64,000 nucleotides of DNA from Candidatus Omnitrophota bacterium. Lineage in GTDB: Bacteria > Omnitrophota > Gorgyraeia > Zapsychrales > Zapsychraceae. Both the position numbers and the translations under genes were made by a program. Positions 1 to 53,166 of this stretch are shown here, one piece after another (positions within the stretch are counted from its first letter, which is position 1; each line of letters starts with the position of its first letter). The notes under the pieces are model-generated. The model was given only the letters and a program-made list of their open reading frames with translations, searched no databases and had not been told where the DNA came from. The DNA lies in NCBI GenBank assembly GCA_029261065.1, contig JAJDCB010000026.1:166320-230319 (forward strand), read 5' to 3'.

Positions 1-484
1 ATCAGCGAAGGATGCAGCGATAGCTTTAAAGCCATTAGCTGGTCCGTATGCGAGTATGTTATTTTCCTTCGGATTATTTATCGCCTCCATTTTTGCAGCA
101 TCGATATTACCATTATCGACAGCTTATAGTGTTTGTGAGGGGATGGGGTGGGATGCGGGCATTGATAAGAGATTTGAGGAGGCCCCTGAATTTTTCTGGA
201 TGTATGCTTTTATGATTATTGTTGGGGCTGGAGTCGTTTTGCTTCCTAAATTTCCTCTACTCAGCGTTATGTATTTTTCACAAGTAGGTAATGGGATATT
301 GCTGCCCTTTGTTCTGTTATTAATGCTTGCTCTTATTAATAATAAAGAAATCATGGGTGAGGATTTTGTGAACACCAGATCTCTAAATGTTATAACTTGG
401 ATCGCCGTTGTTGCCATTATTGTGATCACTATCGTTATGGTTGTATTTACATTCATGTATTCTTCGAAAGTAACCGTGATATAA
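1..484 (+). CDS. mntH: NRAMP-family divalent metal (Mn2+/Fe2+) transporter MntH, C-terminal part (gene starts upstream of window)
   Basis: Frame is open from nt 2. PLAG motif near the start. C-terminal tail KEIMGEDFVNTRSLNVITWIAVVAII closely resembles the MntH tail KRLMGEFVNSRLVAIISWIIAVLII. Several TM helices. Confidence 0.75.
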   Translation, partial: SAKDAAIALKPLAGPYASMLFSFGLFIASIFAASILPLSTAYSVCEGMGWDAGIDKRFEEAPEFFWMYAFMIIVGAGVVLLPKFPLLSVMYFSQVGNGILLPFVLLLMLALINNKEIMGEDFVNTRSLNVITWIAVVAIIVITIVMVVFTFMYSSKVTVI

Positions 485-11019: not shown

Positions 11020-11050
11020 AAATCTCCTTATTATTTTTCTACCTACAACA

Positions 11051-11075
11051 TACAACCTACTACTTACTTTATCTC
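11051..11075. repeat. Right arm of the inverted repeat bracketing gene 9691..11019
   Basis: TACAACCTACTACTTACTTTATCTC is the reverse complement of the 9645-9669 arm. Confidence 0.5.
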
Positions 11076-12922: not shown

Positions 12923-15643
12923 ATGGTTATTAAGCCCAAACTCTATCAATATTTCTCTGATGCAGCTTCCTTTAAATCAAGTGAAGCGATGAGCGATAGA
13001 ATGCTTTATTTTCCCTTGTGTGGGGCAAATAATGATTCTATCAAATCCTCAATTACGCCTTTTTTAAGCGGTGATATCAAGATCGATAAAAATCGTTATT
13101 TAACGAAACCATTTTCCAGAGAAGATTTACGGAGTGTTTCTCGTAATTTTTATCTTAGGAGTCATGATAATGTCATTTCTTTTGCAGATAAAATATCCAA
13201 TGAGCATTCAACAGTTGAAGCAGGGTTTCTTTGGCATAAGGTAACCAAGACTTTTCCTAAAAAAGGACTAGAGCTTCAAGCTTTGAACTTTGTTCCTGTT
13301 TCAGGTGAAAATGTTGAGCTTATGAAGATTACCTGCAAAAACGTTTCTTCAAAAAACATCTCGTTTACACCAACAGGATGTGTCCCAATGTTTGCCCGCG
13401 CCCTTTCCAATAAACATGACCACGAACATGTCACAGCATTACTACAAACTATTACTCAAACAAAACAGGGTGTTATTGTTGAGCCGACGATGTTATTTAA
13501 TGAGGAAGGTCATAAAGACGTTCAAACGACTTATTTTGTTTTTGGATTTGAGGATAGCGGTAACGCTATTAAAGGTACGTTTCCTACGATGGCTTGTTTT
13601 TGTGGTGATGCTGGAACTCTTCGGGAACCGCAGGCAGTCTGTGAGAATTTGGATCCCAAAGGGCTAACAGAGAAAGAATTAAACGGAGAAGAGGCGATTG
13701 GGGCTATACGTTTTGAAGATGTTGAACTTAAAGCCGGCGATTTGAAAGAATATTATATTGTTATGGGAATAGCAGAAAACAATAAAAGTGTGTTTGATAT
13801 TTTCTCGGCTTTTGATACGGGACCTAAATTTGAGCAAGCCTTAACCGAGAATAAAAAATATTGGCAAGCTAAGATTCATTCCATTGAGTTTAATACGGGT
13901 TCGACCGATTTTAATGCCTGGATGAAGTGGGTCACCTTACAGCCTGTTTTGCGTCGCATTTTTGGGTGTTCTTTTTTGCCAGATCATGATTATGGAAAAG
14001 GGGGGCGTGGTTGGAGAGATATTTGGCAGGATTTATTATCGCTTATTCTTATCGAACCGGAAAATGTCAGAGAGCATTTATTGAATAATTTTGCTGGTGT
14101 TCGCATTGATGGTTCTAACGCAACAATCATCGGTGATAAACCAGGTGAGTTTTTGGCCGATCGTAATGCGATTACACGGGTATGGATGGATCACGGCGTC
14201 TGGCCGTTTATGACATTGTTACTTTATATAAATCAAACAGGAGATTTTGATATTCTGTTTGAGGACAGTTTCTATTTCAAAGATCCGCAAATATCACGAA
14301 CCTTTCATAAAGATCTTCAATGGCACCCCAAGGATGGTAAAGAGTTAAAGGATGTGAACGGAAATGTTTACCAAGGTTCTATTTTAGAACATATTCTTGT
14401 TCAGCATTTGGTTCAATTTTTTAATGTGGGCGAACACAATATGATTCGATTAGAAAATGCTGATTGGAACGATGGCTTGGATATGGCTTTTGACCGCGGG
14501 GAAAGTGTTAGCTTTACATCCTTTTATGCTGGAAACTTAATGGCCTTAGCAGATCTTTTGGAACGCGTATCTAGCACAATACAGATTCATGATATTTCTG
14601 TGGCTCAAGAATTATTAAAGTTATTAGATGGGTTAGGAAAAAATAAAGTTGATTACAATAATGCAGATGCCAAACGCAAACATTTATTTGATGTTTATTT
14701 TCCTTCCGTTCAACCCAACGTTAGCGGAGAGAAGACAACGATTGCTATTAAAGATGTGGTTTTAGATTTACGAGCGAAGGGAGAATCGTTAAAAGTATGT
14801 ATTCGATCTCAAGAAAAGATAGTTGTTGATGATAAATCAAATCAGTTTCAGTGGTTTAATGGGTATTACGATAACAAGGGCAACCGTGTTGAAGGCAAAA
14901 AAGATGACACGGTTTGGATGACTCTTACGGGTGCCGTTTTTCCGATTATGTGTGATGTAGCTGAAGATGCTGATGTAGAAAACATTGTTAAATCTGTTAA
15001 TCATTTTTTGAAAGATCAAGAGCTGGGTGGTTATCGTCTTAATACGAATTTTGGTAAGCGTAATTATTTAGACTTAGGGCGAGCTTTTGGATTTGCCTTT
15101 GGGACAAAAGAAAATGGAGCCTTCTTTAGCCATATGATAGTGATGTATGCTTATGCCCTTTACACAAGAGGTTTTGTTCGCGAAGGTTATGAGGTGTTGC
15201 ATTCGATTTATCAGATGTGTATGAATACGGATAAAAGTAAAATTTACCCAGGAGTACCAGAGTACTGTGATGCACAAGGTCAAGGCATGTATCATTATCT
15301 AACGGGGTCCGCTAGTTGGCTTGTATTAACACAATTGACTCAAGTATTTGGTGTCAGAGGTGAGGGTGGCGATTTGGTTATTAGTCCTAAGCTTGTAAAA
15401 GAAGAGTTTTCACATGAAGGTAAGGCTTCTGTTGAAAGTTATTTTGCTGGAAAGAGAATAAAGGTCGTTTATCACAATGAACAGAAATTAGATTATGGAT
15501 CGTACACCATAAAAGGTGTTTCGTTTAAAGATTTTGAGGGTTCTGTTGAATTTTCACAAACGCATCCCGCCCAAATTAAGCTCTCAAGAGCCCCTATCCA
15601 ACAGGCCCCTTCTGGCCTTGAAATTCAGATTCAACTAGGTTGA
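12923..15643 (+). CDS. GH94-like glycoside phosphorylase (cellobiose/cellodextrin/chitobiose/beta-1,2-glucan phosphorylase superfamily)
   Basis: 906 aa. RGWRD (Arg...Asp at i, i+4) and DWNDGLD (Trp-x-Asp) are spaced ~150 aa apart. This mirrors the R351/D355 and W488/D490 catalytic-site residues of cellobiose phosphorylase. Family-level call only. Confidence 0.45.
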   Translation: MVIKPKLYQYFSDAASFKSSEAMSDRMLYFPLCGANNDSIKSSITPFLSGDIKIDKNRYLTKPFSREDLRSVSRNFYLRSHDNVISFADKISNEHSTVEAGFLWHKVTKTFPKKGLELQALNFVPVSGENVELMKITCKNVSSKNISFTPTGCVPMFARALSNKHDHEHVTALLQTITQTKQGVIVEPTMLFNEEGHKDVQTTYFVFGFEDSGNAIKGTFPTMACFCGDAGTLREPQAVCENLDPKGLTEKELNGEEAIGAIRFEDVELKAGDLKEYYIVMGIAENNKSVFDIFSAFDTGPKFEQALTENKKYWQAKIHSIEFNTGSTDFNAWMKWVTLQPVLRRIFGCSFLPDHDYGKGGRGWRDIWQDLLSLILIEPENVREHLLNNFAGVRIDGSNATIIGDKPGEFLADRNAITRVWMDHGVWPFMTLLLYINQTGDFDILFEDSFYFKDPQISRTFHKDLQWHPKDGKELKDVNGNVYQGSILEHILVQHLVQFFNVGEHNMIRLENADWNDGLDMAFDRGESVSFTSFYAGNLMALADLLERVSSTIQIHDISVAQELLKLLDGLGKNKVDYNNADAKRKHLFDVYFPSVQPNVSGEKTTIAIKDVVLDLRAKGESLKVCIRSQEKIVVDDKSNQFQWFNGYYDNKGNRVEGKKDDTVWMTLTGAVFPIMCDVAEDADVENIVKSVNHFLKDQELGGYRLNTNFGKRNYLDLGRAFGFAFGTKENGAFFSHMIVMYAYALYTRGFVREGYEVLHSIYQMCMNTDKSKIYPGVPEYCDAQGQGMYHYLTGSASWLVLTQLTQVFGVRGEGGDLVISPKLVKEEFSHEGKASVESYFAGKRIKVVYHNEQKLDYGSYTIKGVSFKDFEGSVEFSQTHPAQIKLSRAPIQQAPSGLEIQIQLG

Positions 15644-15822: not shown

Positions 15823-17130
15823 ATGAAGAAGCTACTCAAGGGATTTTTAATTTGTTCATTTTTAGTCTTAATCGGTAGTGGTCTGAGTTGTTCGGGAAAA
15901 GCGGCGGATCCCAACACCGTCACTCTTTGGCACTGGATGAACGATCGTCATGCCGCCATTGAAGAGTTAGCCTCACGTTACGAAGAACAAACAGGTATTA
16001 AAGTTAAAGTTGAATTGTTCGCCCCGCCAGATGCTTATACACAAAGAATCATTGCCTCCGCCCAATCAAGAGTCCTTCCCGACATATACGGAATCCTAGA
16101 TAAAAAAGAAATATTTGCCTCCTTTATTGAAAATGGTTTTGTTGCCAATTTAACGGAGGAGTTTGCCAAAGATAATAATGCTTGGGAAAAATCTTTGTTT
16201 GCCAAGGCCGTTGATGTGAATCGTTTTAAACCTAATAATCCTCAAAATATTGAACCAGGAATTTATGGTGTTCCAATTGATGTAACCAATATTCAAATGC
16301 TTTATAACAAAAAGCTTTTAGAAAAAGCAGGAATCAAAACACCACCAAAAACGTTTGATGAGTTTCTTGCAGCCGGTGAAGCTTTAAAAAGAGTGGGTAT
16401 AACAGGATTTGTTGCTGGTTGGGGTGAGTTATGGATGGCGGATTGTTTTGCTTCTAATTATGCGTTTAATATTATGGGTGAAGATAAGATTATGGCAACT
16501 TATAGGGGAGAGGTTCCTTATACAGACCCTGATTGGGTTAAGGTTTTTGGGGTTTTTAAAACACTTAGTGATAAAGGGATTTTAATTGAAGGTATTGTCA
16601 CAAAACCAAATAAAGATGCCGAACAAGACTTTGCCTTACAAAGGGCCGCCTTTTCTTTTAATGGTTCATGGTGCGTGAATGTTTATCACAATATGAATCC
16701 GGATTTAGATTATGGTGCTATGTTACCTCCTGCGATGAATTCAAAATTTCCTTTAAAGATTTGGGGAGGGGGAGGTTCATCCTTTGTTGTTAATAATCAT
16801 ACGCCTAATAAAGAGAAGGCTATTGCGTTTTTAAAATGGTTAACGGGTCATGAGCAACAAGCCTATCTTTCAGAATCAACAAAGAATTTGCCAGCTAACC
16901 GAGAAGCGTTGTCTTCTATTCCAAAAATATTATCTCAATTTGCATCGGCCATGGATGATACAACTCATCCAACGATTTGGAAGTTTAATGAATTGCCTCT
17001 AGTTGTTGAAAACTTTGATAAAGGGATTCAATCTATTATCATTGGAGAGAAAACTCCAGAACAGGTTGCTGCAGAGGTTCAGGCTGTTAAGGAAAGAGAA
17101 ATAGAAAAAGCTAAAAAGCGAAAAAGGTAA
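15823..17130 (+). CDS. Sugar ABC transporter solute-binding lipoprotein (family 1)
   Basis: Signal peptide with lipobox (LSCSG). 435 aa. Typical SBP_bac_1 length. Followed by two permease genes. Confidence 0.7.
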   Translation: MKKLLKGFLICSFLVLIGSGLSCSGKAADPNTVTLWHWMNDRHAAIEELASRYEEQTGIKVKVELFAPPDAYTQRIIASAQSRVLPDIYGILDKKEIFASFIENGFVANLTEEFAKDNNAWEKSLFAKAVDVNRFKPNNPQNIEPGIYGVPIDVTNIQMLYNKKLLEKAGIKTPPKTFDEFLAAGEALKRVGITGFVAGWGELWMADCFASNYAFNIMGEDKIMATYRGEVPYTDPDWVKVFGVFKTLSDKGILIEGIVTKPNKDAEQDFALQRAAFSFNGSWCVNVYHNMNPDLDYGAMLPPAMNSKFPLKIWGGGGSSFVVNNHTPNKEKAIAFLKWLTGHEQQAYLSESTKNLPANREALSSIPKILSQFASAMDDTTHPTIWKFNELPLVVENFDKGIQSIIIGEKTPEQVAAEVQAVKEREIEKAKKRKR

Positions 17131-17142
17131 GCCATAGGCGCC

Positions 17143-18111
17143 TTGAATGAAGATGGTTTTAAGGCGCAACAACAAAACTTTATTATGTCTACTCCGTCAG
17201 CAAAACAAGTCAGTTTCAACAAACTCAAAAACAACGCACAGAACTTTTCTTTTATCCTTCCCGCTGTCCTTATTTTTGCCACTTTTTATATTTATCCTTT
17301 CTACGACATCTTTAAATTATCAATGCATTCCTGGAACGGAATAAATCTTCATAAAACACCTGTTGGATTAGATAATTTCTTTGAGTTAATGACCGATGGC
17401 ATTTGGTGGAAGTCTGTTTGGAATGCAACCTACATTACATTGATTGCATTAACTTTTCAGAATTTATTAGCTTTTGGTTTAGCGTTAGCATGTGATCGTG
17501 AAATTAGGATGAAGAATTTTTATCGTGTTGTGTTTTTTATTCCCCCTGTTTTATCGGAGGTTGTCGTTGGATTAGTTTGGAAGTGGATTTTAAACCCTTC
17601 TGTTCAAGATGGCCAACACATTGGATTACTAAACTATTTTTTTGATAAAATCGGCTTACATCATTTGGTTCATAACTGGCTTTCCGACCCGAATACAGCC
17701 TTAACATGTATTGCTGTTGTTCATAGTTGGAAAGGATTTGGTTGGGGCTTTATAATGTTACTAGCGGGGCTTCAGACGATTGATCGTCAACTTTATGAGG
17801 CAGCAAAAGTTGATGGTGCAGGGTTTTGGAAAACTTTGACAAATGTCACTATTCCAATGATGATGCCTGTAATTTTAGTGGTTATTATTTTAACGGTATT
17901 AGGTTCGATGCAAGCATTTGTACTAGTGTTATCCATGGTGGGCCAAGGTTTGGTTTATCATACAGAAGTTCCTGTAACGAGGATTTTATCAGCCATGACG
18001 GGAACGAATCGCTTTGGATATGCTTGTTCTATGGGCGTTGTCTTTGGCGCCCTTTTGATTATGGTTTCCTTGGCGTTTAAATTTGTTTCAGATAAGGTAA
18101 AGCAGGCTTAA
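17143..18111 (+). CDS. Sugar ABC transporter permease (MalF/UgpA-like)
   Basis: Six TM helices. EAA motif EAAKVDGAGFWKTLTNVTIP. The true start may be the internal MSTPSAK. Confidence 0.75.
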   Translation: MNEDGFKAQQQNFIMSTPSAKQVSFNKLKNNAQNFSFILPAVLIFATFYIYPFYDIFKLSMHSWNGINLHKTPVGLDNFFELMTDGIWWKSVWNATYITLIALTFQNLLAFGLALACDREIRMKNFYRVVFFIPPVLSEVVVGLVWKWILNPSVQDGQHIGLLNYFFDKIGLHHLVHNWLSDPNTALTCIAVVHSWKGFGWGFIMLLAGLQTIDRQLYEAAKVDGAGFWKTLTNVTIPMMMPVILVVIILTVLGSMQAFVLVLSMVGQGLVYHTEVPVTRILSAMTGTNRFGYACSMGVVFGALLIMVSLAFKFVSDKVKQA

Positions 18112-18125
18112 GAAGATTATTTTGA

Positions 18126-18147
18126 GGTCCCCGCTTTCGCGGGGATC
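18126..18147. repeat. REP-like GC-rich hairpin (variant CCCCGC-TTTC-GCGGGG)
   Basis: GGTCCCCGCTTTCGCGGGGATC sits between the two permease genes. It belongs to the TCCCGC-N4-GCGGGA family. Confidence 0.55.
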
Positions 18148-18166
18148 AATTAAGAGTGTTATTATT

Positions 18167-19009
18167 ATGTTAAACAAATATCAAATTAAAGGCATGTTTA
18201 AATCCACGTTCCTCCACATCATCCTGATGTCTGTCGCAGCTACGTGTCTGTTTCCTTTATTCTGGATGTTACGTTGTTCTCTCATGACGAATCAGACCGT
18301 ATTTGTAGATAAATCTTTTTTCCCACATGAGTTGCATTTTATGAATTATTTTCAAGCTTGGACAGAAGGTAATTTTGGAATTTATTTCATTAACAGTATT
18401 ATTTACACAACAAGTGTTGTTGTCGGAATTGTTGTTGTATCATCCTTAGCCGCTTATGCATTCTCACGTCTTGAATTCCCTGGAAAAAAGGTGTTCTTTT
18501 ATATGTTTGTCTTAGCAATGATGATTCCTCTACCAGGTAGTTTCGTTGCCCTTTTTGATTTAATGAACATCATCGGACTTGTGAATACGCGAATAGGGTA
18601 TATACTTTGTATGATTAATGTTGGTCTTTCAATGAGCATCCTTTTATTAAAAACATTTTTTGATAAAATGCCCCCGGATCTTGAAGATGCCGCACGGATT
18701 GATGGTTGTGGAAGGCTTCGTATTTGGTGGAATGTTGCTCTTCCTTTAGCAAGACCTGCGTTGGCGGTTATTATTATTTTTAATTCATTGAATGTCTGGA
18801 ACGAATACATTTTAGCGCAGTTGTTACTAAGCGATAAAAATTTAATGCCATTGCAAAGAGGTCTTATGGTTTTTCAAGGATCACATAGTGTTGATTATCC
18901 TTTGTTGATGGCTGGCTTAACGATTGCTGCTATCCCTATTATTGCCGTGTATCTTTTTATGCAAAAACATATTATTAAAGGGTTATCGTCAGGAGCCGTT
19001 GTTGGATGA
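18167..19009 (+). CDS. Sugar ABC transporter permease (MalG/UgpE-like)
   Basis: EAA motif DAARIDGCGRLRIWWNVALP. Start taken at MLNKYQI so the upstream REP hairpin stays intergenic. No ATPase gene in the locus. Confidence 0.75.
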   Translation: MLNKYQIKGMFKSTFLHIILMSVAATCLFPLFWMLRCSLMTNQTVFVDKSFFPHELHFMNYFQAWTEGNFGIYFINSIIYTTSVVVGIVVVSSLAAYAFSRLEFPGKKVFFYMFVLAMMIPLPGSFVALFDLMNIIGLVNTRIGYILCMINVGLSMSILLLKTFFDKMPPDLEDAARIDGCGRLRIWWNVALPLARPALAVIIIFNSLNVWNEYILAQLLLSDKNLMPLQRGLMVFQGSHSVDYPLLMAGLTIAAIPIIAVYLFMQKHIIKGLSSGAVVG

Positions 19010-21459
19010 AAACCAAATTTATTTCAAAGTCCATTTTATATCTGTTGGTAACTCTGCTCGTTACTCATTTTTCAACCCTACCTTTGCAGGCATCCTCAAA
19101 AATAAAAACTTCTGAAACAGTTGTTAGTGAAATAGAAGAACCTCAAACCCCTCAAGAAGTACAAGAACCTCAAGAACAACCAAAAGATTCTAAAGAAATT
19201 AAAGAGAACAAGCTCAGTGAGTTAGCCATTAAGTCTTTATCGCAGCTTACTTCAGAGGAGATTATTCAACAGGCATGGGAATTTTCTAGCAATAATAATT
19301 TAGAAGAATTGGATCGTTTGATTGTGGCTTGTTTAGAATTTTATGGAGAAGATGCCAAGCTACAACATCAAGAATTAACAGATTTTCCTATTCGCACGGA
19401 AGCTAAAAATTATCAATCCTTAAACGATGTAGCGACGTGTCTTTTTATTAAAGCTGAGTCTCAGATGAATAATGGATTAAGAGAAAAAGCCATCGAAGGG
19501 TTTCAACATATTATTGATAATTACAAATGGTCACAGGCTTGGGATCCGAGAGGTTGGTATTGGTCGGTTGCTGAAAAAAGTCAGGCTAGTATCGATGTGT
19601 TGACAGGAAAGAAACAAGAAGAAATAGATCAAGCTGAGGTAAAAATTAATCGCACCAGACCGAGTCTTGTTGAAAAAGGGACAGAAAATATTATTGATTA
19701 TTCGAAATACGGAAAGTTTATTAATGTGGGCACTGAAAAATATCATTACTCTATTACAGATATGCAAGGACTTACGAAAGCGATAGGTGAGGGAATCTAT
19801 CCAAATACAAGCAGCATTTTTAATAATCCCCGTTTTAAGAAGTTAAAGAAGGAAGGACGCTTAGAGGGGAGTCAATGGGACTATGTTAACACTGATGATC
19901 TTGAAGCGGCTTTTTTTAAATGGGCTACAGCTCATGAGCCATGGGGGATTCGTTTGTTTTACATTGGTATGATATTTGAAAAGGCTGAGATGTACTACGA
20001 GGCTTTAAGAGCCTATCACGCTTTAGTTGTTCATTATCCTAAGACAGTTGCTTGGACATATTGGCAGACTCCTTGGTATCCAGGGCAAGTGGCTATTGCC
20101 AAAATTCGCCATATTATTCGTATTCGTCCAGAGTTACACTTGCAAGATAAGTGGATGAAGATTGAGGTGGAAAATGGGTTTGATAATGAAGTGAAAAATG
20201 ATATTTTTATCTCATATCCAGGAAAAATTTTAGAGAAGAGTTTGATGGAAAAAGTTAAAGATAGATTTCTGGATGATAAAGCGTCGTTAGATAAAGTCAA
20301 AAAAGAATTAGGAAAAGGGACTGTACGTTTGGTTCAATATGAAAATGATCACTGGCAGATGTTGGTTAATGATAAACCTTACATTATTAAAGGTGTCACT
20401 TATGCGCCAACAAAGATTGGTCAAAGTCCTGATAAAGGATCGTTAGAAAATTGGATGGAGCAAGATACAGATGATAACGGTCTTATTGATGGGCCTTATG
20501 ATTCTTGGGTTGATAAAAACAGAAATAATAAACGTGATGAAGATGAGGCTGTTGTTGGCGATTTTCAATTGATGAAAGATATGGGTGTTAATACCATACG
20601 TGTTTATCATGTTCCTGATACCCCTAATAAAAAATTGTTAAGAGAAATGTATGAGAAATATGGAATTCGTGTCATTATGGGAGACTTTTTGGGTAAGTAC
20701 GCTATTGGTTCAGGAGCCAAATGGAGCGATGGAACAGATTATGAAAATGAAGAGCATAAGAAGAAGATGTTAGATGCTGTTAAAGGAATGGTTAATGAGT
20801 TTAAGGATGAACCTTATATTTTAATGTGGCTTTTAGGTAATGAAAATAATTATGGCGTTGCTTGTAATGCTGATAAAAAGCCTGAGGCGTATTTTAAATT
20901 TGCTGATGAGGTTGCTCAATGGATCAAATCTGTTGATAAAAATCATCCCGTTGCAATTAGCAATGGTGATACTCTGTTTTTAGACCTTTTTGCGCAAAAT
21001 GCCCCTAATATTGATATTTTTGCAGCCAATGTTTATCGAGGCAATTATGGGTTTGATCCTTTTTGGGAACAAATTCAGGACGCCAGCGGTAAGCCTGCCT
21101 TTATCACAGAATATGGATGCCCTGCCTTTGCAAAACATCTATCGTTAGAGGAGGCCGAAAAAGCTCAAGCCGATTATCATGAAGGTAATTGGCTAGATAT
21201 TGCAAGAAATACAGCAGGTTCGCAAGACGGTGTAGGGAATGCTTTAGGGGGTATTGTTTTTGAATGGATGGATGAATGGTGGAAAAATTATGAACCTTAT
21301 CTGCACGATCGTGCCTCTGATGCCGTCGGACCGTTTCCGGGAGGTTTTTATTATGAAGAATGGTTTGGTATTGTAAGTCAAGGAAATGGTCGAAAAAGCC
21401 CTTTTTTAAGACAATTAAGAAAGGCCTATTTTTCCTATCAAGAGATGTGGAATCAATAA
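19006..21459 (+). CDS. Secreted clan GH-A (GH2/GH5-like TIM-barrel) glycoside hydrolase with an N-terminal GWFWKP-repeat domain
   Basis: Signal peptide. The N-terminal ~170 aa carry one copy of the repeat that also builds ORFs 21617 and 51589 (…AWDPRGWYWSVAEKSQ). C-terminal TIM barrel has acid/base-like LLGNENNYG and nucleophile-like FITEYGCPAF motifs. Confidence 0.55.
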   Translation: MKTKFISKSILYLLVTLLVTHFSTLPLQASSKIKTSETVVSEIEEPQTPQEVQEPQEQPKDSKEIKENKLSELAIKSLSQLTSEEIIQQAWEFSSNNNLEELDRLIVACLEFYGEDAKLQHQELTDFPIRTEAKNYQSLNDVATCLFIKAESQMNNGLREKAIEGFQHIIDNYKWSQAWDPRGWYWSVAEKSQASIDVLTGKKQEEIDQAEVKINRTRPSLVEKGTENIIDYSKYGKFINVGTEKYHYSITDMQGLTKAIGEGIYPNTSSIFNNPRFKKLKKEGRLEGSQWDYVNTDDLEAAFFKWATAHEPWGIRLFYIGMIFEKAEMYYEALRAYHALVVHYPKTVAWTYWQTPWYPGQVAIAKIRHIIRIRPELHLQDKWMKIEVENGFDNEVKNDIFISYPGKILEKSLMEKVKDRFLDDKASLDKVKKELGKGTVRLVQYENDHWQMLVNDKPYIIKGVTYAPTKIGQSPDKGSLENWMEQDTDDNGLIDGPYDSWVDKNRNNKRDEDEAVVGDFQLMKDMGVNTIRVYHVPDTPNKKLLREMYEKYGIRVIMGDFLGKYAIGSGAKWSDGTDYENEEHKKKMLDAVKGMVNEFKDEPYILMWLLGNENNYGVACNADKKPEAYFKFADEVAQWIKSVDKNHPVAISNGDTLFLDLFAQNAPNIDIFAANVYRGNYGFDPFWEQIQDASGKPAFITEYGCPAFAKHLSLEEAEKAQADYHEGNWLDIARNTAGSQDGVGNALGGIVFEWMDEWWKNYEPYLHDRASDAVGPFPGGFYYEEWFGIVSQGNGRKSPFLRQLRKAYFSYQEMWNQ

Positions 21460-21616
21460 ATACTGAAAAATTTAACCGTTTTTGTCAATTCTATGCCGTA
21501 TCGCTAAATTTTGGCATTTTTATATATTATAGTGTATAATTAGACTACGTATTTAAAGGTAGTCTTATTTTTAACCCACCAAAATTCCTAAAAAGAAGAA
21601 AAGGAGAAGTAGTAAC

Positions 21617-22489
21617 ATGAAAAAATTGTTGTATCTATTTATCGCATTACTTATTTCAGGGGCTGGATTTGTTAGTCCAAATCAAGTTGAAGCATACAAT
21701 TTCGGAGATTTTCGTTCGGAAACGTTGACAGCAAAAGCATGGGAAGCTTTGGCAGAAGACGATATTGAGGCCGTATTAGCATATACAAATAAGGTTATGG
21801 AACTTTATGGGGCGCAAGCACAACAAATGCAAGAAAGTATTGATGAATTTGTTAGTGGTCCTAAAGAAGACGTCTATGCTTTATGGGCATTAAACGATGT
21901 TTCTACAAGTTTGTTTATCCAAGGGGAAGCCTTTAGAAAAGCTAATATGGTTGACGAAGCCAAAGAAGTTTACAAGAAACTCTTAAACGAATACACGTAT
22001 GGACAATCTTGGGATGATAATGGTTGGTTTTGGAAACCAGCTGAAGCTGCTAAAGAAAAATTGGCAATGCTAGAATCCGGAACGAATTTAGATTTTGGCG
22101 ATTATTCTTCAGCGTATTTGACAGATCAAGCATGGAAGGCCTTAGGTAGCCAAGATCTAGAAGGTGTTGTTATCTATACGGATAAAGTTATGGAACTTTA
22201 TGCGAACCAGGCGCAAGAAATGCAAAATTCTTTGACAGAATATGCTTGGGAATCAAAAGAAAAAATATTTTCTTTGTGGGCTTTAAATGATGTTGGTACA
22301 GCGCTTTTCATCAGAGGTGAAGCGTTTAGGCAAGCAGGAAAGAACAAAGAATCTGCGCAAGCTTATAAAGCTCTCGTTGATAGTTATTATTATGCTCAAT
22401 GTTGGGATCCAGGTGTTAACAATAAAGGTTGGTTCTGGAAACCAGCTGAGGCGGCTCAACAAGCATTGGATGAAATTGGAGAAGTTTAA
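21617..22489 (+). CDS. Secreted protein made of two ~130-aa GWFWKPAEAA repeats (novel domain)
   Basis: Signal peptide. Two internal repeats, each ending ...LWALNDV[SG]T.LFI.GEAFR...Y.Y.Q.WD..GWFWKPAEAA. Confidence 0.5.
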   Translation: MKKLLYLFIALLISGAGFVSPNQVEAYNFGDFRSETLTAKAWEALAEDDIEAVLAYTNKVMELYGAQAQQMQESIDEFVSGPKEDVYALWALNDVSTSLFIQGEAFRKANMVDEAKEVYKKLLNEYTYGQSWDDNGWFWKPAEAAKEKLAMLESGTNLDFGDYSSAYLTDQAWKALGSQDLEGVVIYTDKVMELYANQAQEMQNSLTEYAWESKEKIFSLWALNDVGTALFIRGEAFRQAGKNKESAQAYKALVDSYYYAQCWDPGVNNKGWFWKPAEAAQQALDEIGEV

Positions 22490-22511
22490 TATTTCTCATT
22501 CCACTATTTTT

Positions 22512-22543
22512 CAGGGTATTTGTTGATTCTAACAAATACCCTG
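22512..22543 (+). terminator. Perfect 13-bp hairpin (possible terminator or regulatory hairpin)
   Basis: CAGGGTATTTGTT-gattct-AACAAATACCCTG. No clean T-run follows it. Confidence 0.35.
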
Positions 22544-22635
22544 AAAATCCTTTTAAATCACAATTTGTAATCTACCATTTTCAAGCAAAAGATTAAAAAC
22601 AGAATGACCTGCCGAGAATAGAAAGGCTAAGCAAC

Positions 22636-23337
22636 ATGAAATTACGTTGGATTTTTTTTGTATGTGTGTTAAGTTTTACCGCTGGATGTGGAAATTCACA
22701 AAAAGCGAAACAAAAAGCTACACCACCTGAAACGAATCAGCAAACAGTTAAAACATCTTCCGAAACATTACCTGCCGCCTTAGATATTGACATCGAAGAG
22801 ATGGCCAATTCTAATGGATTTAAACCGTTCTATATTTATGCTGACAAAGGCTCTAGGCTAAATCATTATGTCCCTTCAGGATTTATGCCTAATGGCAAAT
22901 GCGTTACATTTAATGATGTCTGGCGTGAAAATTGCTATTCCGGAGAGACATGTGTCCAAATAGTCTATGATGTTGAATGTTCCCAGCTGGATCAAAAATG
23001 GGTGGGGATTTATTGGCTTAATCCTCCCAATAATTGGGGTCGCAGAAAAGGTGGTTTTAATTTAACCGGTGCCAACAAGTTAACCTTTTGGGCTAAGGGA
23101 CGTTCGGGTAACGAACAGATACAAGAATTTACGGTTGGAGGCATTGAAGGTGATTATCCTGATACGGATAAGGTCGTTCTTGGGCCTATTATTTTAACGG
23201 ATCAATGGAAGCAATACACCATTGACTTAAGGGGTAAAGATTTATCTTATATTAGCGGGGGATTTGCGTGGGCAACGGAGGCCGATGTGAACGAAGGGAG
23301 TTGTGAGTTTTACTTGGATAATCTTAGATTTGAGTAA
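22636..23337 (+). CDS. Lipoprotein with a beta-sandwich (carbohydrate-binding-module-like) C-terminal domain
   Basis: Lipobox FTAGC. Aromatic- and Gly-rich C-terminal domain. Located inside the glycan-utilisation locus. Confidence 0.4.
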   Translation: MKLRWIFFVCVLSFTAGCGNSQKAKQKATPPETNQQTVKTSSETLPAALDIDIEEMANSNGFKPFYIYADKGSRLNHYVPSGFMPNGKCVTFNDVWRENCYSGETCVQIVYDVECSQLDQKWVGIYWLNPPNNWGRRKGGFNLTGANKLTFWAKGRSGNEQIQEFTVGGIEGDYPDTDKVVLGPIILTDQWKQYTIDLRGKDLSYISGGFAWATEADVNEGSCEFYLDNLRFE

Positions 23338-23388: not shown

Positions 23389-23422
23389 AAAAAGCGCTTT
23401 GTTTATCGAAGCGCTTTTTTTA
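23389..23422 (+). terminator. Rho-independent terminator
   Basis: AAAGCGCTTTG...CGAAGCGCTTTTTTT: a GC-rich palindromic stem followed by T7. Confidence 0.55.
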
Positions 23423-23706: not shown

Positions 23707-25044
23707 GTGTGCATGTCTAAGGGTGCGGCTATTAAAATAACTGTAGTCGTCATCTTGTTAGTTATTGCATGTCTTGGTCTTGCAGGGTGGTTGTACAAAT
23801 TAAATACAGATCTAAAAGAAAAGAATTTGTCTTTAGAAAAAGAAGTTGAGCAGGTTCATAAACGAGAACTTGCAGCGGTGAGAGATGCAAAGGCTATTGA
23901 ACAAAAGTTAAAAAAAGTTAGAGAAGAGAAAGTAGCTTTAGAAACGAACATTAGTGAATTACACAAACAAACGACGGGTCTTAACGAAGAAATTGATAGC
24001 ATCAGTGCTGATCGCGATAAGTTTAAAAATAGAATAGAAAATATCAAAAAAGAGCGTGATGATCTGATGGCCCGCATGCAAGAAATGGCCACGGAAATAG
24101 AAAACCACAAGCTAGCCGCCGCACAATCCTCCGGGAGTCAATTCTCAAATTCAGCCCAAATACAATTGCCCAACTCAGAGGGTAGTCAAGTTACCGTCCT
24201 GGAATCCGCTCCAGAACCTGTCGATTATTCTCAAATTGAGGAGAGAAAAGGGGATTACGAGCATTGGGCTAAACTTTTAAGAGCAAAAGCGAATTTAGAA
24301 GTTAAAGTAGATCAATTAAAAAGAGACCTATCAGAAGCTGCTGTTGAAATTGTTGATTTGAAGCAAACAAATTCTGATTTTCAAATGGATATTGAAAATT
24401 TAACGTTAAATAAAGAAGATATCGGCCGCGAAATTCAATACAAGGAAGAGATGATTAATAATCTTTCATTAGAACTTGCCCGTGCTAAGAATGATAAAAA
24501 GTTTTTAACAGATCGTGTTTCAAAGATTAATGATGGGAATAAAGAGTTAAGAAACCAGCTTAAAACTTTAATTACAAAAAAGAGTGCACTCGAGAAAACA
24601 GTTGTTAAGCTGACACAAGATAAGAATAATATTAATAAGAAATTAGCTGGGTCAGAAGAAGTTATTCAGAGCAAAATTGATGAAATTTGGGACATTAAAG
24701 ACAGTATTGATAATACATTTAAATCAACGCGTTTGTCTGTTCCATCAAGCGAAGTTGAATTGCCTCCTATTGTTGTTAATTCTAATGGTCCCGCTGTTAG
24801 CTTTAATCCTGGAGCAACAATTCCAGGTATTGACGCTCAAGTGGTAAGTGTTAATCATGATAATAATTTTGTTATTCTTGATGCTGGAGAGAATACCGGA
24901 GTACGTATAGGCGATACATTAAGCGTTTATCGAGACTCAAAATACGTTGCCCGCCTTGAAGTTATCCAAGTTCGTAAAGATATCTCAGCTGCTGATATTA
25001 AAGACAAATGGTCTCGTCTTGAGGCAGGAGATGTTGTTCGTTAA
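23707..25044 (+). CDS. Membrane-anchored long coiled-coil protein with a small C-terminal beta domain
   Basis: N-terminal TM helix. ~300 aa of heptad-rich E/K/L sequence. C-terminal ...VILDAGENTGVRIGDTLSVYRD... domain. Confidence 0.4.
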   Translation: MCMSKGAAIKITVVVILLVIACLGLAGWLYKLNTDLKEKNLSLEKEVEQVHKRELAAVRDAKAIEQKLKKVREEKVALETNISELHKQTTGLNEEIDSISADRDKFKNRIENIKKERDDLMARMQEMATEIENHKLAAAQSSGSQFSNSAQIQLPNSEGSQVTVLESAPEPVDYSQIEERKGDYEHWAKLLRAKANLEVKVDQLKRDLSEAAVEIVDLKQTNSDFQMDIENLTLNKEDIGREIQYKEEMINNLSLELARAKNDKKFLTDRVSKINDGNKELRNQLKTLITKKSALEKTVVKLTQDKNNINKKLAGSEEVIQSKIDEIWDIKDSIDNTFKSTRLSVPSSEVELPPIVVNSNGPAVSFNPGATIPGIDAQVVSVNHDNNFVILDAGENTGVRIGDTLSVYRDSKYVARLEVIQVRKDISAADIKDKWSRLEAGDVVR

Positions 25045-25067: not shown

Positions 25068-26075
25068 ATGAGTCAAAAAAAAATTAGTATTGATGATGTA
25101 GCCCGTCGAGCCAAAGTCTCCATTACAACAGTCTCTCGTGTTATCAATAACGTACCTACCGTTTCCAATAAAAATCGAGCTAAAGTTGAAGAGGCTGTTG
25201 CTGCCTTAAAGTTTAAACCAAACGTCAGTGCCCAACGTCTCGCCCGAGGTGTTAACAATGCGATTGGTCTTGTTATGCCTGGGTATCCAGGAATCTTTCA
25301 TTCTTTTTATGCCATAGAGCTTGTACGTGGGATTGGACATTCATGTGAAACATTAAGAATGGATATGGTTTTTCATATCACCAATGGATTTAATCCGATC
25401 AATAACAACAATGTTGGTGGGGTTATTTTTGCTGATATTATTGAAAACCGTAAACAAGTCGAATCCGCCGTTGCAACGGGAACACCTTGTGTGATTATTA
25501 ATAATAAAGTAGATGATTTAGATGTGAGTTATGTCTCTATTCATAATCATTTTGGTGGTGAGTTAGCAGCTGATTATTTGTATAGTCTTGGACATCGCGA
25601 TATCGCTATCGTTTCGGGATCTTTTAATACCCAAGCCGGTATTCAACGATTTGACGGGTTTAGGAAATATTTAGAAAAACAAAATAATCCTCTCAATGAG
25701 GAGTATATTTTCGAAGGTGATTATTCAAGGCGATGTGCGCGTGTGGCGGCCGAACAGTTTTTAAAAGCTAAAAAAAGACCAACTGCCATTTTTGCGGCTA
25801 GTGATGAAATGGCTTTAGAGTTGATGGCCTTTTTTTTAGAGAAAGGAGTTAAGATTCCTGAAGAACTTTCGATTATTGGCTTTGACGATAATCCAGCCTG
25901 CCTGTATGGCCCCGTAGCCCTAACAACCATAAAACAGCCTCTTTTTAAGATGGCAGAAGAATCCGTAAGAATGCTTCATAAGATCATCCAAGAGCAAAAG
26001 CATGTTAGGAAAAAGTTAATTTTAAAACCCGAGCTCGTTATCCGAGAATCCTGCGCTCCCTGCCCAAAGAAGTAA
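25068..26075 (+). CDS. LacI-family transcriptional regulator
   Basis: N-terminal HTH (ISIDDVARRAKVSITTVSRVIN) and a periplasmic-binding-protein-like effector domain. 335 aa. Confidence 0.8.
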   Translation: MSQKKISIDDVARRAKVSITTVSRVINNVPTVSNKNRAKVEEAVAALKFKPNVSAQRLARGVNNAIGLVMPGYPGIFHSFYAIELVRGIGHSCETLRMDMVFHITNGFNPINNNNVGGVIFADIIENRKQVESAVATGTPCVIINNKVDDLDVSYVSIHNHFGGELAADYLYSLGHRDIAIVSGSFNTQAGIQRFDGFRKYLEKQNNPLNEEYIFEGDYSRRCARVAAEQFLKAKKRPTAIFAASDEMALELMAFFLEKGVKIPEELSIIGFDDNPACLYGPVALTTIKQPLFKMAEESVRMLHKIIQEQKHVRKKLILKPELVIRESCAPCPKK

Positions 26076-51200: not shown

Positions 51201-51300
51201 AAAACAACCCCCCGTTGTCAAAAGCGGTCCTAAAGTAGGCCGCAATGATCCATGTCCTTGTGGAAGTGGGAAGAAGCATAAAAAATGCTGTGGTGCGTAA
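48298..51300 (+). CDS. secA: Preprotein translocase ATPase SecA
   Basis: 1000 aa. DEAD-like motor motifs. C-terminal zinc-binding tail [14 protein letters not shown]. Confidence 0.95.
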
Positions 51301-51588: not shown

Positions 51589-53166
51589 TTGATTATGCGA
51601 ATAGAAAAGAAAGTCACTAGAGCGTTTTTTTTGATTCTTGTACTCATTGTCTTCTGTCTGGGCTTGACTCATACAACAAAGGCAAATGAGTATGATTTGG
51701 AAAATAACTCTTCAGAAGAACTCACAGCTAAAGCCTGGGCCGCTCTCAAAGAAAGAGACGTTGAAGCTGTGTTAGTTTATACAAATGAATGTATAAATTT
51801 GTATGCCGGTCGTGCTAAGAGAATGCAGGCTGAGTTAGAAAGTTATCCAACGGGTTCTAATGATGACGTTCATCAATATTGGGCTATCAACGATGTAGCC
51901 ACTTCATTATACATTCAGGCGGAGGCTTTTCGTGAAGTGAACATGATGGAGGAAGCCACAGAAGTCTACATTAAAATAATAAACGATTATAGTTTTGGCC
52001 AGACATGGGATCCAAGGGGCTGGTTTTGGAAGCCGGCTGAAGCCGCACAGGATAGGTTAGACGTTATTGAGTCGGGTAAGAATATAGATTTTGGGAATTA
52101 TTCTTCGGAGTTCTTGACGACGCAAGCATGGAATGCCTTAAATACTGGCGATCTTGACTCGGTCGATGACTACGCAGATAAGGTGATTAGCTTATATGCT
52201 GAGAAAGCTAAGGAGATGCAAAATTTTTTGGAAGACTATCCTTTGGGGTCAAATGAGGACATTCATCTTTTTTCAGCGCTCAATGATGTCGGAACTGTTT
52301 ATTTTATTAAAGCGCAAGCGCAAGAGAAAAAAGATGATAAAGATGGGGCTATCTATTATTATAAAAAAATAATTAACAGTTATTCTTACTCCCAGTGTTG
52401 GAATCCAGAAGGCTGGTTTTGGAAGCCGGCTGAAGGCGCGAAGGACAGAATACATATTATTAGGTCGGGTAAGAATATAGATTTCGGGAATTATTCTTCG
52501 GAATTTTTGACAACGCAAGCATGGAAGGCTTTAAATGCTGGAGACTTTGAGTCGGTCAATGACTATGCAGATAAGGTGATTAGTTTATATGCCGATAAAG
52601 CCAAAGAAATGCAAGACGCATTGAGCGGGTATCCCTGGGAGTCAAATGCAATTATTCATTCCCACTGGGCGTTGAATGATGTAGGCACCGTTTATTTTAT
52701 AAAGGGAGAAGCGGAAAGGAAGGCGGGCAACAATAAAAGAGCTATTAACTATTATGAAAAGGTTGTTAGTAATTTTTATTTCTCACAGTGCTGGGATCCA
52801 GAAGATTGGTTTTGGAAGCCGGCTGATGCAGCTCAACAGGCTTTAGATGAACTAGAAGATGAAGCGCAGAAGGCTAAAAAATACGCTCATATGAAAAGTT
52901 CAAAAAGAATCGGTGCTGATACGAAAAATATTACGGATAATAAGTTAGGCGTTGAAGGTGGTTTAGTCGTTTCTAATATGACTTATGGGAGTAAAAGTCC
53001 AATGATTGGAAGTATAGAGAATAGTGAAGTCATTTTTAACAATCAGAGTGAAAGTGAAGATGAAAATAAAGACAGTGTATGGGGAAAACTTTGGTGGAAA
53101 GTTATCATTCCAATATCAATATCGGTGATAGCAGCGGCATTAATTTTAAAATTCGTAAAGAAATAA
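51589..53166 (+). CDS. Secreted, C-terminally membrane-anchored protein made of three GWFWKPAEAA repeats
   Basis: Signal peptide. Three ~135-aa repeats each ending Q.WDP.GWFWKPAE[AG]A. Ser/Asn-rich linker. C-terminal TM helix (VIIPISISVIAAALIL). Confidence 0.5.
   Translation: MIMRIEKKVTRAFFLILVLIVFCLGLTHTTKANEYDLENNSSEELTAKAWAALKERDVEAVLVYTNECINLYAGRAKRMQAELESYPTGSNDDVHQYWAINDVATSLYIQAEAFREVNMMEEATEVYIKIINDYSFGQTWDPRGWFWKPAEAAQDRLDVIESGKNIDFGNYSSEFLTTQAWNALNTGDLDSVDDYADKVISLYAEKAKEMQNFLEDYPLGSNEDIHLFSALNDVGTVYFIKAQAQEKKDDKDGAIYYYKKIINSYSYSQCWNPEGWFWKPAEGAKDRIHIIRSGKNIDFGNYSSEFLTTQAWKALNAGDFESVNDYADKVISLYADKAKEMQDALSGYPWESNAIIHSHWALNDVGTVYFIKGEAERKAGNNKRAINYYEKVVSNFYFSQCWDPEDWFWKPADAAQQALDELEDEAQKAKKYAHMKSSKRIGADTKNITDNKLGVEGGLVVSNMTYGSKSPMIGSIENSEVIFNNQSESEDENKDSVWGKLWWKVIIPISISVIAAALILKFVKK

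Follow-up and report, generated by a model that had tools for sequence, protein, structure and literature searches.

The window, a stretch of 64,000 nucleotides of Omnitrophota DNA, encodes three proteins that share a unit of ~131 residues, and this unit is a specialised, self-contained extracytoplasmic module of TPR fold with an added tryptophan-rich hairpin. Our preferred reading, to which we give a probability of about 45%, is that the unit serves as a non-catalytic, glucan-binding accessory module in a beta-1,3-glucan locus.

The repeat unit in ORFs A, B and C

To place the unit in ORFs A, B and C, we used an HMM built on the six units of the window (Table 1). The original prediction had assigned two copies to ORF A, three copies and a TM anchor to ORF B, and one copy to the N-terminus of the hydrolase ORF C; all three ORFs are present at the positions in Table 1, the HMM bears out each copy number, and a hydrophobicity scan bears out the TM helix. 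In ORF A the HMM matches span aa 25-156 (199 bits) and aa 157-290 (200 bits). The other four units of ORFs A and B are 41–53% identical to unit A1, and the ORF C unit is 25% identical; when the alignment of ORF C orthologues is compared with the unit profile by hhalign, unit C1 is recovered with a probability of 100% (E 6e-51). Judged by these comparisons, the similarity among the three ORFs is far beyond chance. The motifs predicted for the repeat (LTxKAWxAL, YTxK[VC]xxLY, WALNDV[SG]T, GEAFR and Q[SC]WDPxGWFWKPAE[AG]A) are all found, and they are conserved family-wide (195 units from 149 clusters at 50% identity).

Table 1. Features of the window, with positions counted from its first nucleotide.
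Feature	Position	Strand	Description
GH94, laminaribiose-phosphorylase-like	12923..15643	+	First gene of the locus; Pfam GH94
ABC sugar importer	15823..19009	+	Solute-binding protein 15823-17130; permeases 17143-18111 and 18122-19009
ORF C	19006..21459	+	817-aa secreted hydrolase: signal peptide, full unit, middle region with half unit, clan GH-A TIM barrel
Unit C1	19225..19614	+	aa 74-203; diverged hairpin SQAWDPRGWYWSVAE; HMM 181 bits
Degenerate half unit of ORF C	19945..20115	+	aa 314-370; second TPR hairpin, aromatic hairpin AWTYWQTPWYP, then helix
Clan GH-A TIM-barrel catalytic domain of ORF C, GH158-like	20368..21456	+	aa 455-817
Promoter-like site upstream of ORF A	21511..21540	+	TTGGCA-18-TATAAT, 11/12 matches; from consensus scan only
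ORF A	21617..22489	+	Secreted 290-aa protein: signal peptide (aa 1-26) and two units
Unit A1	21695..22084	+	aa 27-156; HMM 199 bits; TPR_6 match aa 98-126
Unit A2	22085..22486	+	aa 157-290; HMM 200 bits; 52% identical to unit A1
Terminator-like hairpin right after ORF A	22508..22547	+	18-bp stem; from consensus scan only
Lipoprotein, 233 aa	22636..23337	+	Lipobox FTAGC; conserved neighbour of ORF A
Membrane-anchored coiled-coil protein, 445 aa	23707..25044	+	Conserved yet fast-evolving locus member
LacI-family regulator	25068..26075	+	Pfam LacI and Peripla_BP_3; in 61/80 loci
ORF B	51589..53166	+	Signal peptide, three units, ~70-aa linker, C-terminal TM helix
Unit B1	51685..52080	+	aa 33-164; HMM 206 bits
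Unit B2	52081..52473	+	aa 165-295; HMM 212 bits
Unit B3	52474..52866	+	aa 296-426; HMM 208 bits
C-terminal hydrophobic helix of ORF B	53089..53160	+	Followed by KFVKK; Kyte-Doolittle scan; aa 499-522 in 523-aa numbering

All three proteins have hydrophobic, signal-peptide-like N-termini, with an AxA site immediately before YNFGD in ORF A orthologues, and none of ORFs A, B and C has a lipobox cysteine. The public record of ORF B (P0125) begins at an ATG two codons downstream, at 51595, which is probably the true start. ORF A has 1881 homologues at E<=1e-3, and every named one belongs to Omnitrophota; its slot in the operon holds two units, or three in some lineages. It is not unusually conserved, with a median identity of 61% against 57–73% for its operon neighbours. 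The promoter-like and terminator-like sites on either side of it would predict that ORF A is expressed separately and at a high level.

Fold of the unit

The repeat had been described as a novel domain that could not be assigned. At the level of fold this description fails on the prediction's own terms, because the unit matches an already annotated family, TPR_6 (PF13174): ORFs A, B and C score 37.6, 32.9 and 27.2 bits, respectively, against a gathering cut-off of 26.3, and of 29 units taken in isolation, 26 have a match at E<=0.01 (one single unit alone scores 24.9 bits, just below the cut-off). What stands is that the unit as a whole is not covered by any model of Pfam or NCBIfam, or by any sequence in PDB: Pfam sees only ~29 of its 131 residues, corresponding to the second hairpin only, and a search of PDB sequences with the ORF A profile returned nothing meaningful (best E 0.3).

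The AF2 model of a single unit (unit A1; pLDDT 96, pTM 0.90) predicts stacked antiparallel helix-turn-helix hairpins, as in solved TPR domains, with two hairpins and a capping helix in each unit. The Foldseek search that the original prediction had proposed for a single unit gave no PDB neighbour of significance (E 0.1 and TM 0.58 at best), the closest structures being TPR proteins. With the model of the whole of ORF A (pLDDT 87, pTM 0.65) only weak TPR matches were obtained (TM 0.15–0.30), possibly due to an orientation between the two units that is not fixed in the model; on this whole-protein pTM and these global TM values, the units look like separate capped beads.

The unit departs from the canonical fold in that helix 2 is longer at its C-terminal end, helix 3 is longer at its N-terminal end (the WALNDVxT motif), and the last two helices are separated by an inserted beta-hairpin rich in tryptophan (QCWDPxGWFW). 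The residues that are invariant across the family are polar and aromatic and lie in these non-canonical parts, and helices 4 and 5 are variable (195 units). Compared with the C-terminal TPR domain of YbgF/CpoB (PDB 2XEV; TPR_6), the unit is only 13–15% identical, leaves ~40 of 132 residues unaligned, adds the helix extensions and the aromatic beta-hairpin, and is tandemly repeated as an entire module; the proteins that carry it have no N-terminal coiled coil, and their neighbours are sugar-uptake genes, not tol-pal. The NCBIfam model tol_pal_ybgF (TIGR02795) gives 18.5 bits, far below its cut-off of 90.1, and that of BamD/YfiO (TIGR03302) gives 21.1 bits, below its cut-off of 81.4; unlike BamD, ORFs A, B and C lack the lipobox of a lipoprotein.

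Homologues are already named 'tetratricopeptide repeat protein' by NCBI and JGI, and we found no description of the unit in the literature on Omnitrophota with TPR or laminarin, or on TPR, CBM and glucan. Behind the generic label stands a well-defined family that forms more than 1300 clusters at 50% identity and merits a profile of its own.

Two further candidates were considered and set aside. DUF6360 (PF19887) scores above its cut-off in ORF B, yet none of 29 units and none of 16 single-unit proteins matches it individually; on this comparison the match is local and does not represent the family of the unit. Cysteine often occupies positions 35, 73 and 106 of the unit, but Cys35 and Cys106 co-occur too loosely for a disulfide staple (both in 110 units, one alone in 45 and 22, neither in 18), and the units of the window mostly carry just one. 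We treated these cysteines as buried small residues.

The locus and its hydrolase

The original prediction had also placed the repeat in a glycan-utilisation locus, and this part holds: the locus is conserved, its substrate is probably a beta-1,3-glucan (laminarin-type), and hydrolases of clan GH-A recur as fusion partners or direct neighbours of the unit. In Omnitrophota, 80 species-level genomes share the gene order solute-binding protein, permease, permease, glycoside hydrolase, ORF A, lipoprotein, coiled-coil protein, LacI. The lipoprotein has a counterpart in 74 of the 80 related loci, with no family match in Pfam or NCBIfam and no PDB relative found, and the coiled-coil protein has one in 64 (median identity 37%). 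Importer orthologues match Pfam SBP_bac_1 and BPD_transp_1; no TBDT was found among the 80 loci, and the window locus has no SusC/SusD. The GH94 protein matches laminaribiose phosphorylase (PDB 6GGY) over its full length (E 1.9e-265).

The catalytic barrel of ORF C matches Glyco_hydro_2_C (1.2e-17) and Glyco_hydro_72 (1.2e-8) in Pfam, and its best PDB matches are the GH158 entries 9oro and 6pal (E 1.6e-11), at a weak 47 bits and with partial coverage of ~145–185 residues. Because this match is weak, the assignment to beta-1,3-glucan rests mainly on the GH94 neighbour. The candidate acid/base of ORF C, N612/E613, and its candidate nucleophile, E702, fall in GNE and TE[FW]G motifs that line up with those of 9oro and 6pal and are conserved in 52 orthologues. 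These residues correspond to N136/E137/E220, the catalytic residues of BuGH158 (PMC7157763). By this alignment, ORF C has the arrangement expected of a clan GH-A barrel of GH158, an N-E acid/base after beta-4 and an E nucleophile after beta-7. Both ORF C and the GH158 endo-beta-1,3-glucanases (BuGH158, PDB 6PAL; 9ORO) have a clan GH-A barrel with aligned N-E and E residues, and ORF C and BuGH158 are each encoded in a beta-1,3-glucan locus, the substrate being putative for ORF C. They differ in that BuGH158 is a Bacteroides surface lipoprotein with a C-terminal Ig-like domain, whereas in ORF C the barrel is preceded by an N-terminal region of ~450 residues that includes the unit and the half unit.

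The half unit of ORF C aligns to unit positions 72-128 (hhalign probability 94%, E 1.5e-7), matches TPR_6 at aa 317-347, and is highly conserved across the 52 orthologues, more so than the full N-terminal unit. This conservation upstream of the barrel would fit a reading in which the unit belongs to the GH-A barrel as a subunit, structural or regulatory: it might help the barrel to fold, stabilise it, or extend or cover the substrate cleft and so set the preferred chain length or the processivity. Such a subunit could act in cis, as in ORF C, P0163, P0185 and P0179, or in trans, as in L089 and possibly with ORF A. On contig L089 (60–66% GC) a single-unit protein of 168 aa has its own gene, which shares 17 nt with the gene of a hydrolase homologous to ORF C (E 4e-16). 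Partners that interact physically typically show this pattern, fused in some genomes and encoded in another by overlapping genes, here probably coupled in translation. We nevertheless consider a subunit role improbable, given that unit-only proteins, with 1 to 7 copies, number in the hundreds, that many of them have no hydrolase nearby, and that kinase, anti-sigma and RHS fusions also occur.

Fusions and possible roles of the unit

Homologue searches for lineage spread and fusion partners, in line with what the original prediction had proposed, found units mainly in Omnitrophota, with GH-A, GT2, kinase, FecR and RHS partners and 1 to 7 copies per protein; these proteins are secreted, lipid-anchored or membrane-anchored. 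P0169, the only single-unit protein with a named source, is labelled Candidatus Omnitrophota. The host of L089 seems to lie outside Omnitrophota, possibly in Planctomycetota, going only by the GC content and the N_methyl and SBP_bac_10 neighbours. N-terminal units as in ORF C are found in P0220, P0235, P0253 and P0260; P0185 has a GH-A barrel followed by four C-terminal units, P0232 has units on both sides of the barrel, P0179 runs from a TM helix through a GH-A barrel and two units to a GT2 synthase with several TM helices, and P0163 joins two units to Glyco_hydro_cc, which we take to be the GH128-type beta-1,3-glucanase family. Units are also fused to a Ser/Thr kinase (P0269/P0272), to a FecR anti-sigma domain (P0233) and to RHS repeats. 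Because the position relative to the barrel is shuffled (N-terminal, C-terminal or both), the copy number in the same slot is two or three, and sensor fusions occur, the unit behaves like an accessory binding module. The fusions and the genomic context, including the gene overlap in L089, lend support to the suggestion that it may bind polysaccharide or anchor proteins at the surface.

It is instructive to compare the unit with systems of known function. The SusD-like SGBP-A proteins of Bacteroidota use a TPR-based scaffold for glycan capture beside glycoside hydrolases, including GH158, in beta-1,3-glucan loci (PMC7157763), and may offer the closest analogy for how the unit works. The unit has no SusD family match in Pfam at E<=1, and a SusD protein is a lipoprotein of ~500 aa with a single domain, partnered by a TonB-dependent transporter of SusC type, in contrast to a repeatable 131-aa module in an ABC importer locus. 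Like the CBM families of CAZy, the unit is contiguous, non-catalytic, fused to CAZymes at variable position and copy number, and also found alone in tandem arrays; it differs in being an all-alpha TPR module. Its fusions to GH158-like, GH128-type and GT2 proteins, together with a compact and confident model, point to a contiguous, independently folding module associated with carbohydrate-active enzymes, which is one part of how CAZy defines a CBM; the other part is binding of carbohydrate, an activity that is predicted for the unit.

P0179 is fused to a GT2 synthase, and in L096 a single-unit gene lies near GT2, epimerase and nucleotidyl-transferase genes. These two cases would fit a role in making or remodelling an exported beta-glucan of the cell itself, like that of the TPR parts of BcsC, PelB, PgaA and AlgK, which lead a growing polysaccharide through the periplasm, with the locus recycling this polymer instead of using external laminarin. 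We regard this as very unlikely: the window locus lacks both a glycosyltransferase and a barrel for export through the outer membrane, and it has the catabolic hallmarks of an ABC importer, a phosphorylase and a LacI repressor. In addition, BcsC, PelB, PgaA and AlgK have long continuous TPR superhelices attached to outer-membrane beta-barrels, whereas the units are discrete, capped and without a barrel, and their locus is catabolic.

In the pathway that goes with our preferred reading, the GH158-like retaining endo-hydrolase ORF C, with its unit and half unit, would cut the glucan outside the cytoplasm, the ABC importer would bring in the resulting oligosaccharides, the laminaribiose-phosphorylase-like GH94 would cleave them inside the cell, and LacI would control the locus. 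The unit would bind the glucan chain through the polar and aromatic invariants clustered around the hairpin, with a predicted surface of Q47, N68, D69, T72, Q105, W107, D108, W112, F113 and W114. ORF A would then be a free multivalent glucan-holding protein, ORF C would hold its own copy beside the catalytic barrel, and ORF B would display three units from the membrane. We infer the substrate beta-1,3-glucan, the binding of carbohydrate, the location of the site and the exposure of its aromatics; a two-stranded hairpin with four aromatics presumably cannot bury both of its faces.

TPR domains canonically mediate protein-protein interactions, and the closest structures to the unit (YbgF, BamD, Hop, Fis1 and the P4H peptide-binding domain) all have proteins or peptides as ligands, which counts against glucan binding. 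So does the fact that nearly all recognised CBM families are, to our knowledge, beta-rich (beta-sandwich or other) and not helical. Some contexts are moreover not related to carbohydrate: one Omnitrophota single-unit gene lies amid phosphate-uptake genes, ORF B is flanked by secA on one side and lnt on the other, and RHS fusions occur.

The main rival reading is a protein-protein adaptor, and contexts that have nothing to do with glycans, such as the phosphate-uptake genes, are in keeping with it. The units would bind a partner protein or each other and so either bring some or all of five proteins (the hydrolase, ORF A, the lipoprotein, the coiled-coil protein and the solute-binding protein) together in an envelope complex or tether enzymes to an envelope component. 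The glucan would be recognised elsewhere, for example by the lipoprotein or in the catalytic cleft. ORF A always adjoins the conserved lipoprotein and the membrane-anchored coiled-coil protein, the overlapping genes in L089 suggest a stoichiometric complex, and the kinase and anti-sigma fusions fit protein ligands equally well. However, the invariant residues lie in lineage-specific extensions and the hairpin, off the helices of the canonical concave groove; the unit recombines with at least three catalytic contexts in varied order, which is unusual for a fixed partner interface; and its copy number varies within one operon slot. We judge an adaptor role to be somewhat less probable than glucan binding.

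Within the glucan-binding reading, a more ambitious and more tentative proposal is that modules binding beta-1,3-glucan include a new, all-alpha family on a TPR scaffold, with this unit as its founder, in which the hairpin, not the groove, binds. Its members would serve as a free, multivalent capture protein, be appended to GH158-like and GH128-type enzymes, and act as the sensor domain of kinases and anti-sigma factors, in Omnitrophota and some GC-rich bacteria.

Omnitrophota are uncultivated and widespread, their carbon sources are largely inferred, and an uptake locus of probable laminarin type is now defined in 80 species-level genomes, together with an accessory module in it that is typical of the lineage. 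Should the unit prove to be an adaptor, this locus would encode an envelope-bound, multi-protein glucan-degrading assembly in a phylum without an experimental model. If it binds glucan, the unit would be among very few helical carbohydrate-binding modules, and it would be a useful metagenome marker for beta-glucan enzymes and sensors.

Fold and conservation of the repeat unit

We trained an HMM on the six units of the window and used it to place the repeats in ORF A, ORF B and the hydrolase ORF C (table). Every window unit scores 181-212 bits against this model, and identity to ORF A unit 1 is 41-53% for the other four ORF A and B units and 25% for the ORF C unit. The three proteins are real as first described, with two, three and one units respectively, and the units contain all the motifs listed in the original prediction. 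Secretion and the C-terminal transmembrane (TM) anchor of ORF B are likewise supported: all three proteins have signal-peptide-like N-termini, and ORF B has a C-terminal hydrophobic helix with basic residues behind it. In ORF A orthologues an AxA site directly precedes YNFGD, so the mature protein would start with the first unit.

Coordinates of the units and of the features of the probable glucan locus (aa, protein residues; unit, positions within the ~131-aa repeat)
Feature	Position	Strand	Details
GH94, first gene of locus	12923-15643	+	full-length match to laminaribiose phosphorylase, PDB 6GGY, E 1.9e-265
ORF C	19006-21459	+	hydrolase
ORF C full unit	aa 74-203		six-unit HMM
ORF C degenerate half unit	aa 314-370; 19945-20115	+	GIRLFYIG...AWTYWQTPWYPGQVAIAKIRHI
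Promoter-like site of ORF A	21511-21540	+	near-consensus sigma-70-like, 11/12 matches; consensus scan only
ORF A	21617-22489	+	two-unit protein
ORF A units	aa 25-156, 157-290		six-unit HMM
Terminator-like hairpin after ORF A	22508-22547	+	18-bp stem; consensus scan only
Lipoprotein	22636-23337	+	233 aa, lipobox FTAGC
Second hairpin, after lipoprotein	23389-23419
Coiled-coil protein	23707-25044	+	445 aa; N-terminal TM helix, long coiled coil, small C-terminal domain
ORF B	51589-53166	+	three-unit protein
ORF B units	aa 33-164, 165-295, 296-426		six-unit HMM
Unit N-terminal segment	DFGDYxS		short, extended; AlphaFold2
Unit helices	unit 10-22; 26-49 (long); 59-63 (short); 66-84; 88-101; 117-130		AlphaFold2
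Unit beta-hairpin	unit 107-109 + 113-115		QCWDPxGWFW motif; AlphaFold2

The unit belongs to the TPR superfamily: its fold is a TPR in variant packaging and is not new. Pfam TPR_6 matches above gathering score in each of the three ORFs, and 26 of 29 units scanned singly also hit TPR_6; the match covers only ~29 of the 131 unit residues (positions 74-102). AlphaFold2 models have pLDDT 87 for ORF A and pLDDT 96 (pTM 0.90) for a lone unit. The claim that the domain could not be assigned to any known family therefore fails at fold level, by the refuting result that the original prediction itself had named, and homologues are already labelled "tetratricopeptide repeat protein" in public annotation. 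Membership in YbgF or BamD was rejected, with scores far under the family cut-offs, and neither Pfam nor NCBIfam has a dedicated model for the unit. What is distinctive is that some 2.5 TPRs are packed into a capped domain, which is itself the unit of repetition. Helix 2 is lengthened C-terminally and helix 3 N-terminally, and the aromatic hairpin is placed between the last two helices.

Over 195 units, the best-conserved positions are S9, L12, A16, W17, C35, Y39, A43, Q47, L50, W65-V70 (WALNDV), T72, F75, I76, G78, A90, Q105, C106, W107, D108, G111, W112, F113 and W114; helices 4 and 5 are variable. Canonical TPR positions explain the hydrophobic share of these; the invariant residues that are polar or aromatic fall in the hairpin and the lengthened helix ends. 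Because the end of helix B adjoins the start of helix A in TPRs, these invariants would be expected to form one patch at the domain edge. The hairpin is probably unable to bury all four aromatic side chains. Cys is the commonest residue family-wide at positions 35, 73 and 106 (e.g. ORF A aa 262, ORF B aa 66), with loose co-occurrence; window units mostly retain just one of the three.

Genomic setting of the three proteins

Behind the GH94 gene come an ABC solute-binding protein (SBP), two permeases and ORF C. Among PDB entries, the ORF C barrel is closest to GH158 endo-beta-1,3-glucanases (E 1.6e-11), and its N612/E613 and E702 align with the GNE and TE[FW]G motifs of GH158, which correspond to catalytic N136/E137/E220 of BuGH158 (PMC7157763). 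Downstream of ORF A lie the lipoprotein, the coiled-coil membrane protein and a LacI regulator. With this gene content (GH94, ABC importer, GH158-like ORF C, LacI), the locus looks like an acquisition system for beta-1,3-glucan or laminari-oligosaccharides. Almost without exception, the 80 related genomes keep the order SBP, permease, permease, GH, ORF A, lipoprotein, coiled-coil, LacI, MnmG, provided that their contigs reach far enough, and three-unit proteins hold the ORF A slot in some lineages. Conservation of ORF A does not exceed that of its locus neighbours (median identity 61% versus 57-73%). The promoter-like site and terminator-like hairpin flanking it suggest separate expression, possibly at high level, within the operon. 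Literature searches found no description of the unit module or of this Omnitrophota locus.

The lipoprotein follows ORF A in 74 of the 80 related loci. Searches of Pfam and PDB gave it no relative, and its best lead is a weak 'choice-of-anchor J' match (E 0.003); it may prove to be the surface protein that actually binds glycan in this locus. The coiled-coil protein, present in 64 of 80 loci, is fast-evolving (median identity 37%), and its C-terminal domain has a weak likeness to FlgT_C. The main rival to carbohydrate binding is that the unit may be a protein adaptor, the canonical TPR role, and would hold the enzyme, the lipoprotein and the coiled-coil proteins together or anchor them; we consider this somewhat less likely than carbohydrate binding.

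ORF B, whose near-duplicate units 2 and 3 both start NIDFGNYSSEFLTTQAW, has its start at the ATG at 51595 in the public record. It sits between the housekeeping envelope genes secA (48298-51300) and lnt (53241-54758), outside any glycan locus, and this paralogue is the sole example of a three-unit, C-terminally anchored architecture among the best 150 cluster representatives. Elsewhere in the window, a 380-aa protein (54982-56124, +) has a membrane-embedded N-terminus and then two response-regulator receiver-like segments, which both start WRSILVIDDD and thus indicate an internal duplication; a 454-aa ORF (9691-11055, -) upstream of a CvpA-like (Colicin_V) gene has no Pfam match at E<=0.001.

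Distribution and domain partners of the family

A profile of 29 units searched against 1.84 billion representatives gave 1330 clusters (50% identity) at E<=1e-3 and 847 at E<=1e-10, and 256 unit loci were confirmed in a motif scan over 185,579 species genomes. The best 80 of these 256 are in Omnitrophota MAGs or placeholder-named MAGs, except for one on a short contig that bears the label Lysobacterales. More distant, single-unit versions are also present on GC-rich contigs (60-66% GC) with N_methyl/SBP_bac_10 genes, which are typical of Planctomycetota-like genomes. In the GC-rich locus L089/L090, a 168-aa single-unit gene overlaps a hydrolase gene by 17 nt (L089 8001-9972, contig of 60-66% GC); the hydrolase (493 aa, clan GH-A) is a homologue of ORF C (28% identity, E 4e-16). 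From the GC content and neighbour genes of L089 we infer that the unit-hydrolase pairing occurs beyond Omnitrophota. A GntR-type regulator and a GH99 gene also lie close by.

Where units are joined to other domains, clan GH-A barrels predominate. Besides ORF C-type fusions (P0220, P0235, P0253, P0260), two units accompany Glyco_hydro_cc, the GH128-type beta-1,3-glucanase family, in P0163; P0185 has a barrel, four C-terminal units, an Ig domain and DUF4082, and P0232 a barrel with units on both sides. ORF C itself carries a half unit in its middle region, ahead of the TIM barrel; its hhalign match to the unit profile has probability 94% and E 1.5e-7. This half unit is very well kept across 52 orthologues and more conserved than the full N-terminal unit. 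That the unit is a structural subunit of the barrel is a reading to weigh here, and we consider it unlikely. Copy number ranges from 1 to 7 units per protein, and single-unit secreted proteins of 150-200 aa are frequent. P0179, an ENA metagenome protein of 1202 aa, runs from an N-terminal TM helix through a GH158-like barrel bearing the GNE motif and two units to a multi-TM, cellulose-synthase-like GT2 domain, which puts synthase and hydrolase in one polypeptide. A further role for the unit, the least likely of those considered, could be to handle glucan that the cell itself exports, as BcsC-like systems do. The remaining partners are CHB_HEX_C/Fn3_assoc (P0146), a 3-keto-disaccharide-hydrolase-like domain (P0224), Ser/Thr kinases (P0269, P0272), a FecR anti-sigma factor (P0233) and RHS repeats (P0186, P0271), and P0208 is a giant unit-bearing protein of 5953 aa. 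Genes for single-unit proteins have varied neighbours: LacI, SBP and a large PATR protein; GT2 and sugar-nucleotide genes; or phosphate-uptake genes.

Proposed function of the unit

We propose that the unit would act as an extracytoplasmic, non-catalytic accessory module that binds carbohydrate, a tentative reading to which we give a probability of roughly 45%. The pattern is that of an accessory binding module, since the unit is extracytoplasmic and non-catalytic, can stand before or after a catalytic domain that acts on glycans, varies in copy number and also serves as a sensor ectodomain. Carbohydrate would be the most economical ligand because the unit is fused to two different beta-1,3-glucanase-type barrels, belongs to a laminaribiose-phosphorylase locus, and has polar-aromatic invariants that appear to cluster around a hairpin whose four aromatic side chains could hardly all be buried. 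In its presumed way of working it would be closest to SusD-type and CBM-type glycan binders. Unlike SusD systems, however, the unit proteins lack SusD domains and the locus lacks a SusC partner, so that the unit is a non-member; nor is it counted as a CBM, its carbohydrate binding being putative. If true, glucan binding would be by a helical module.
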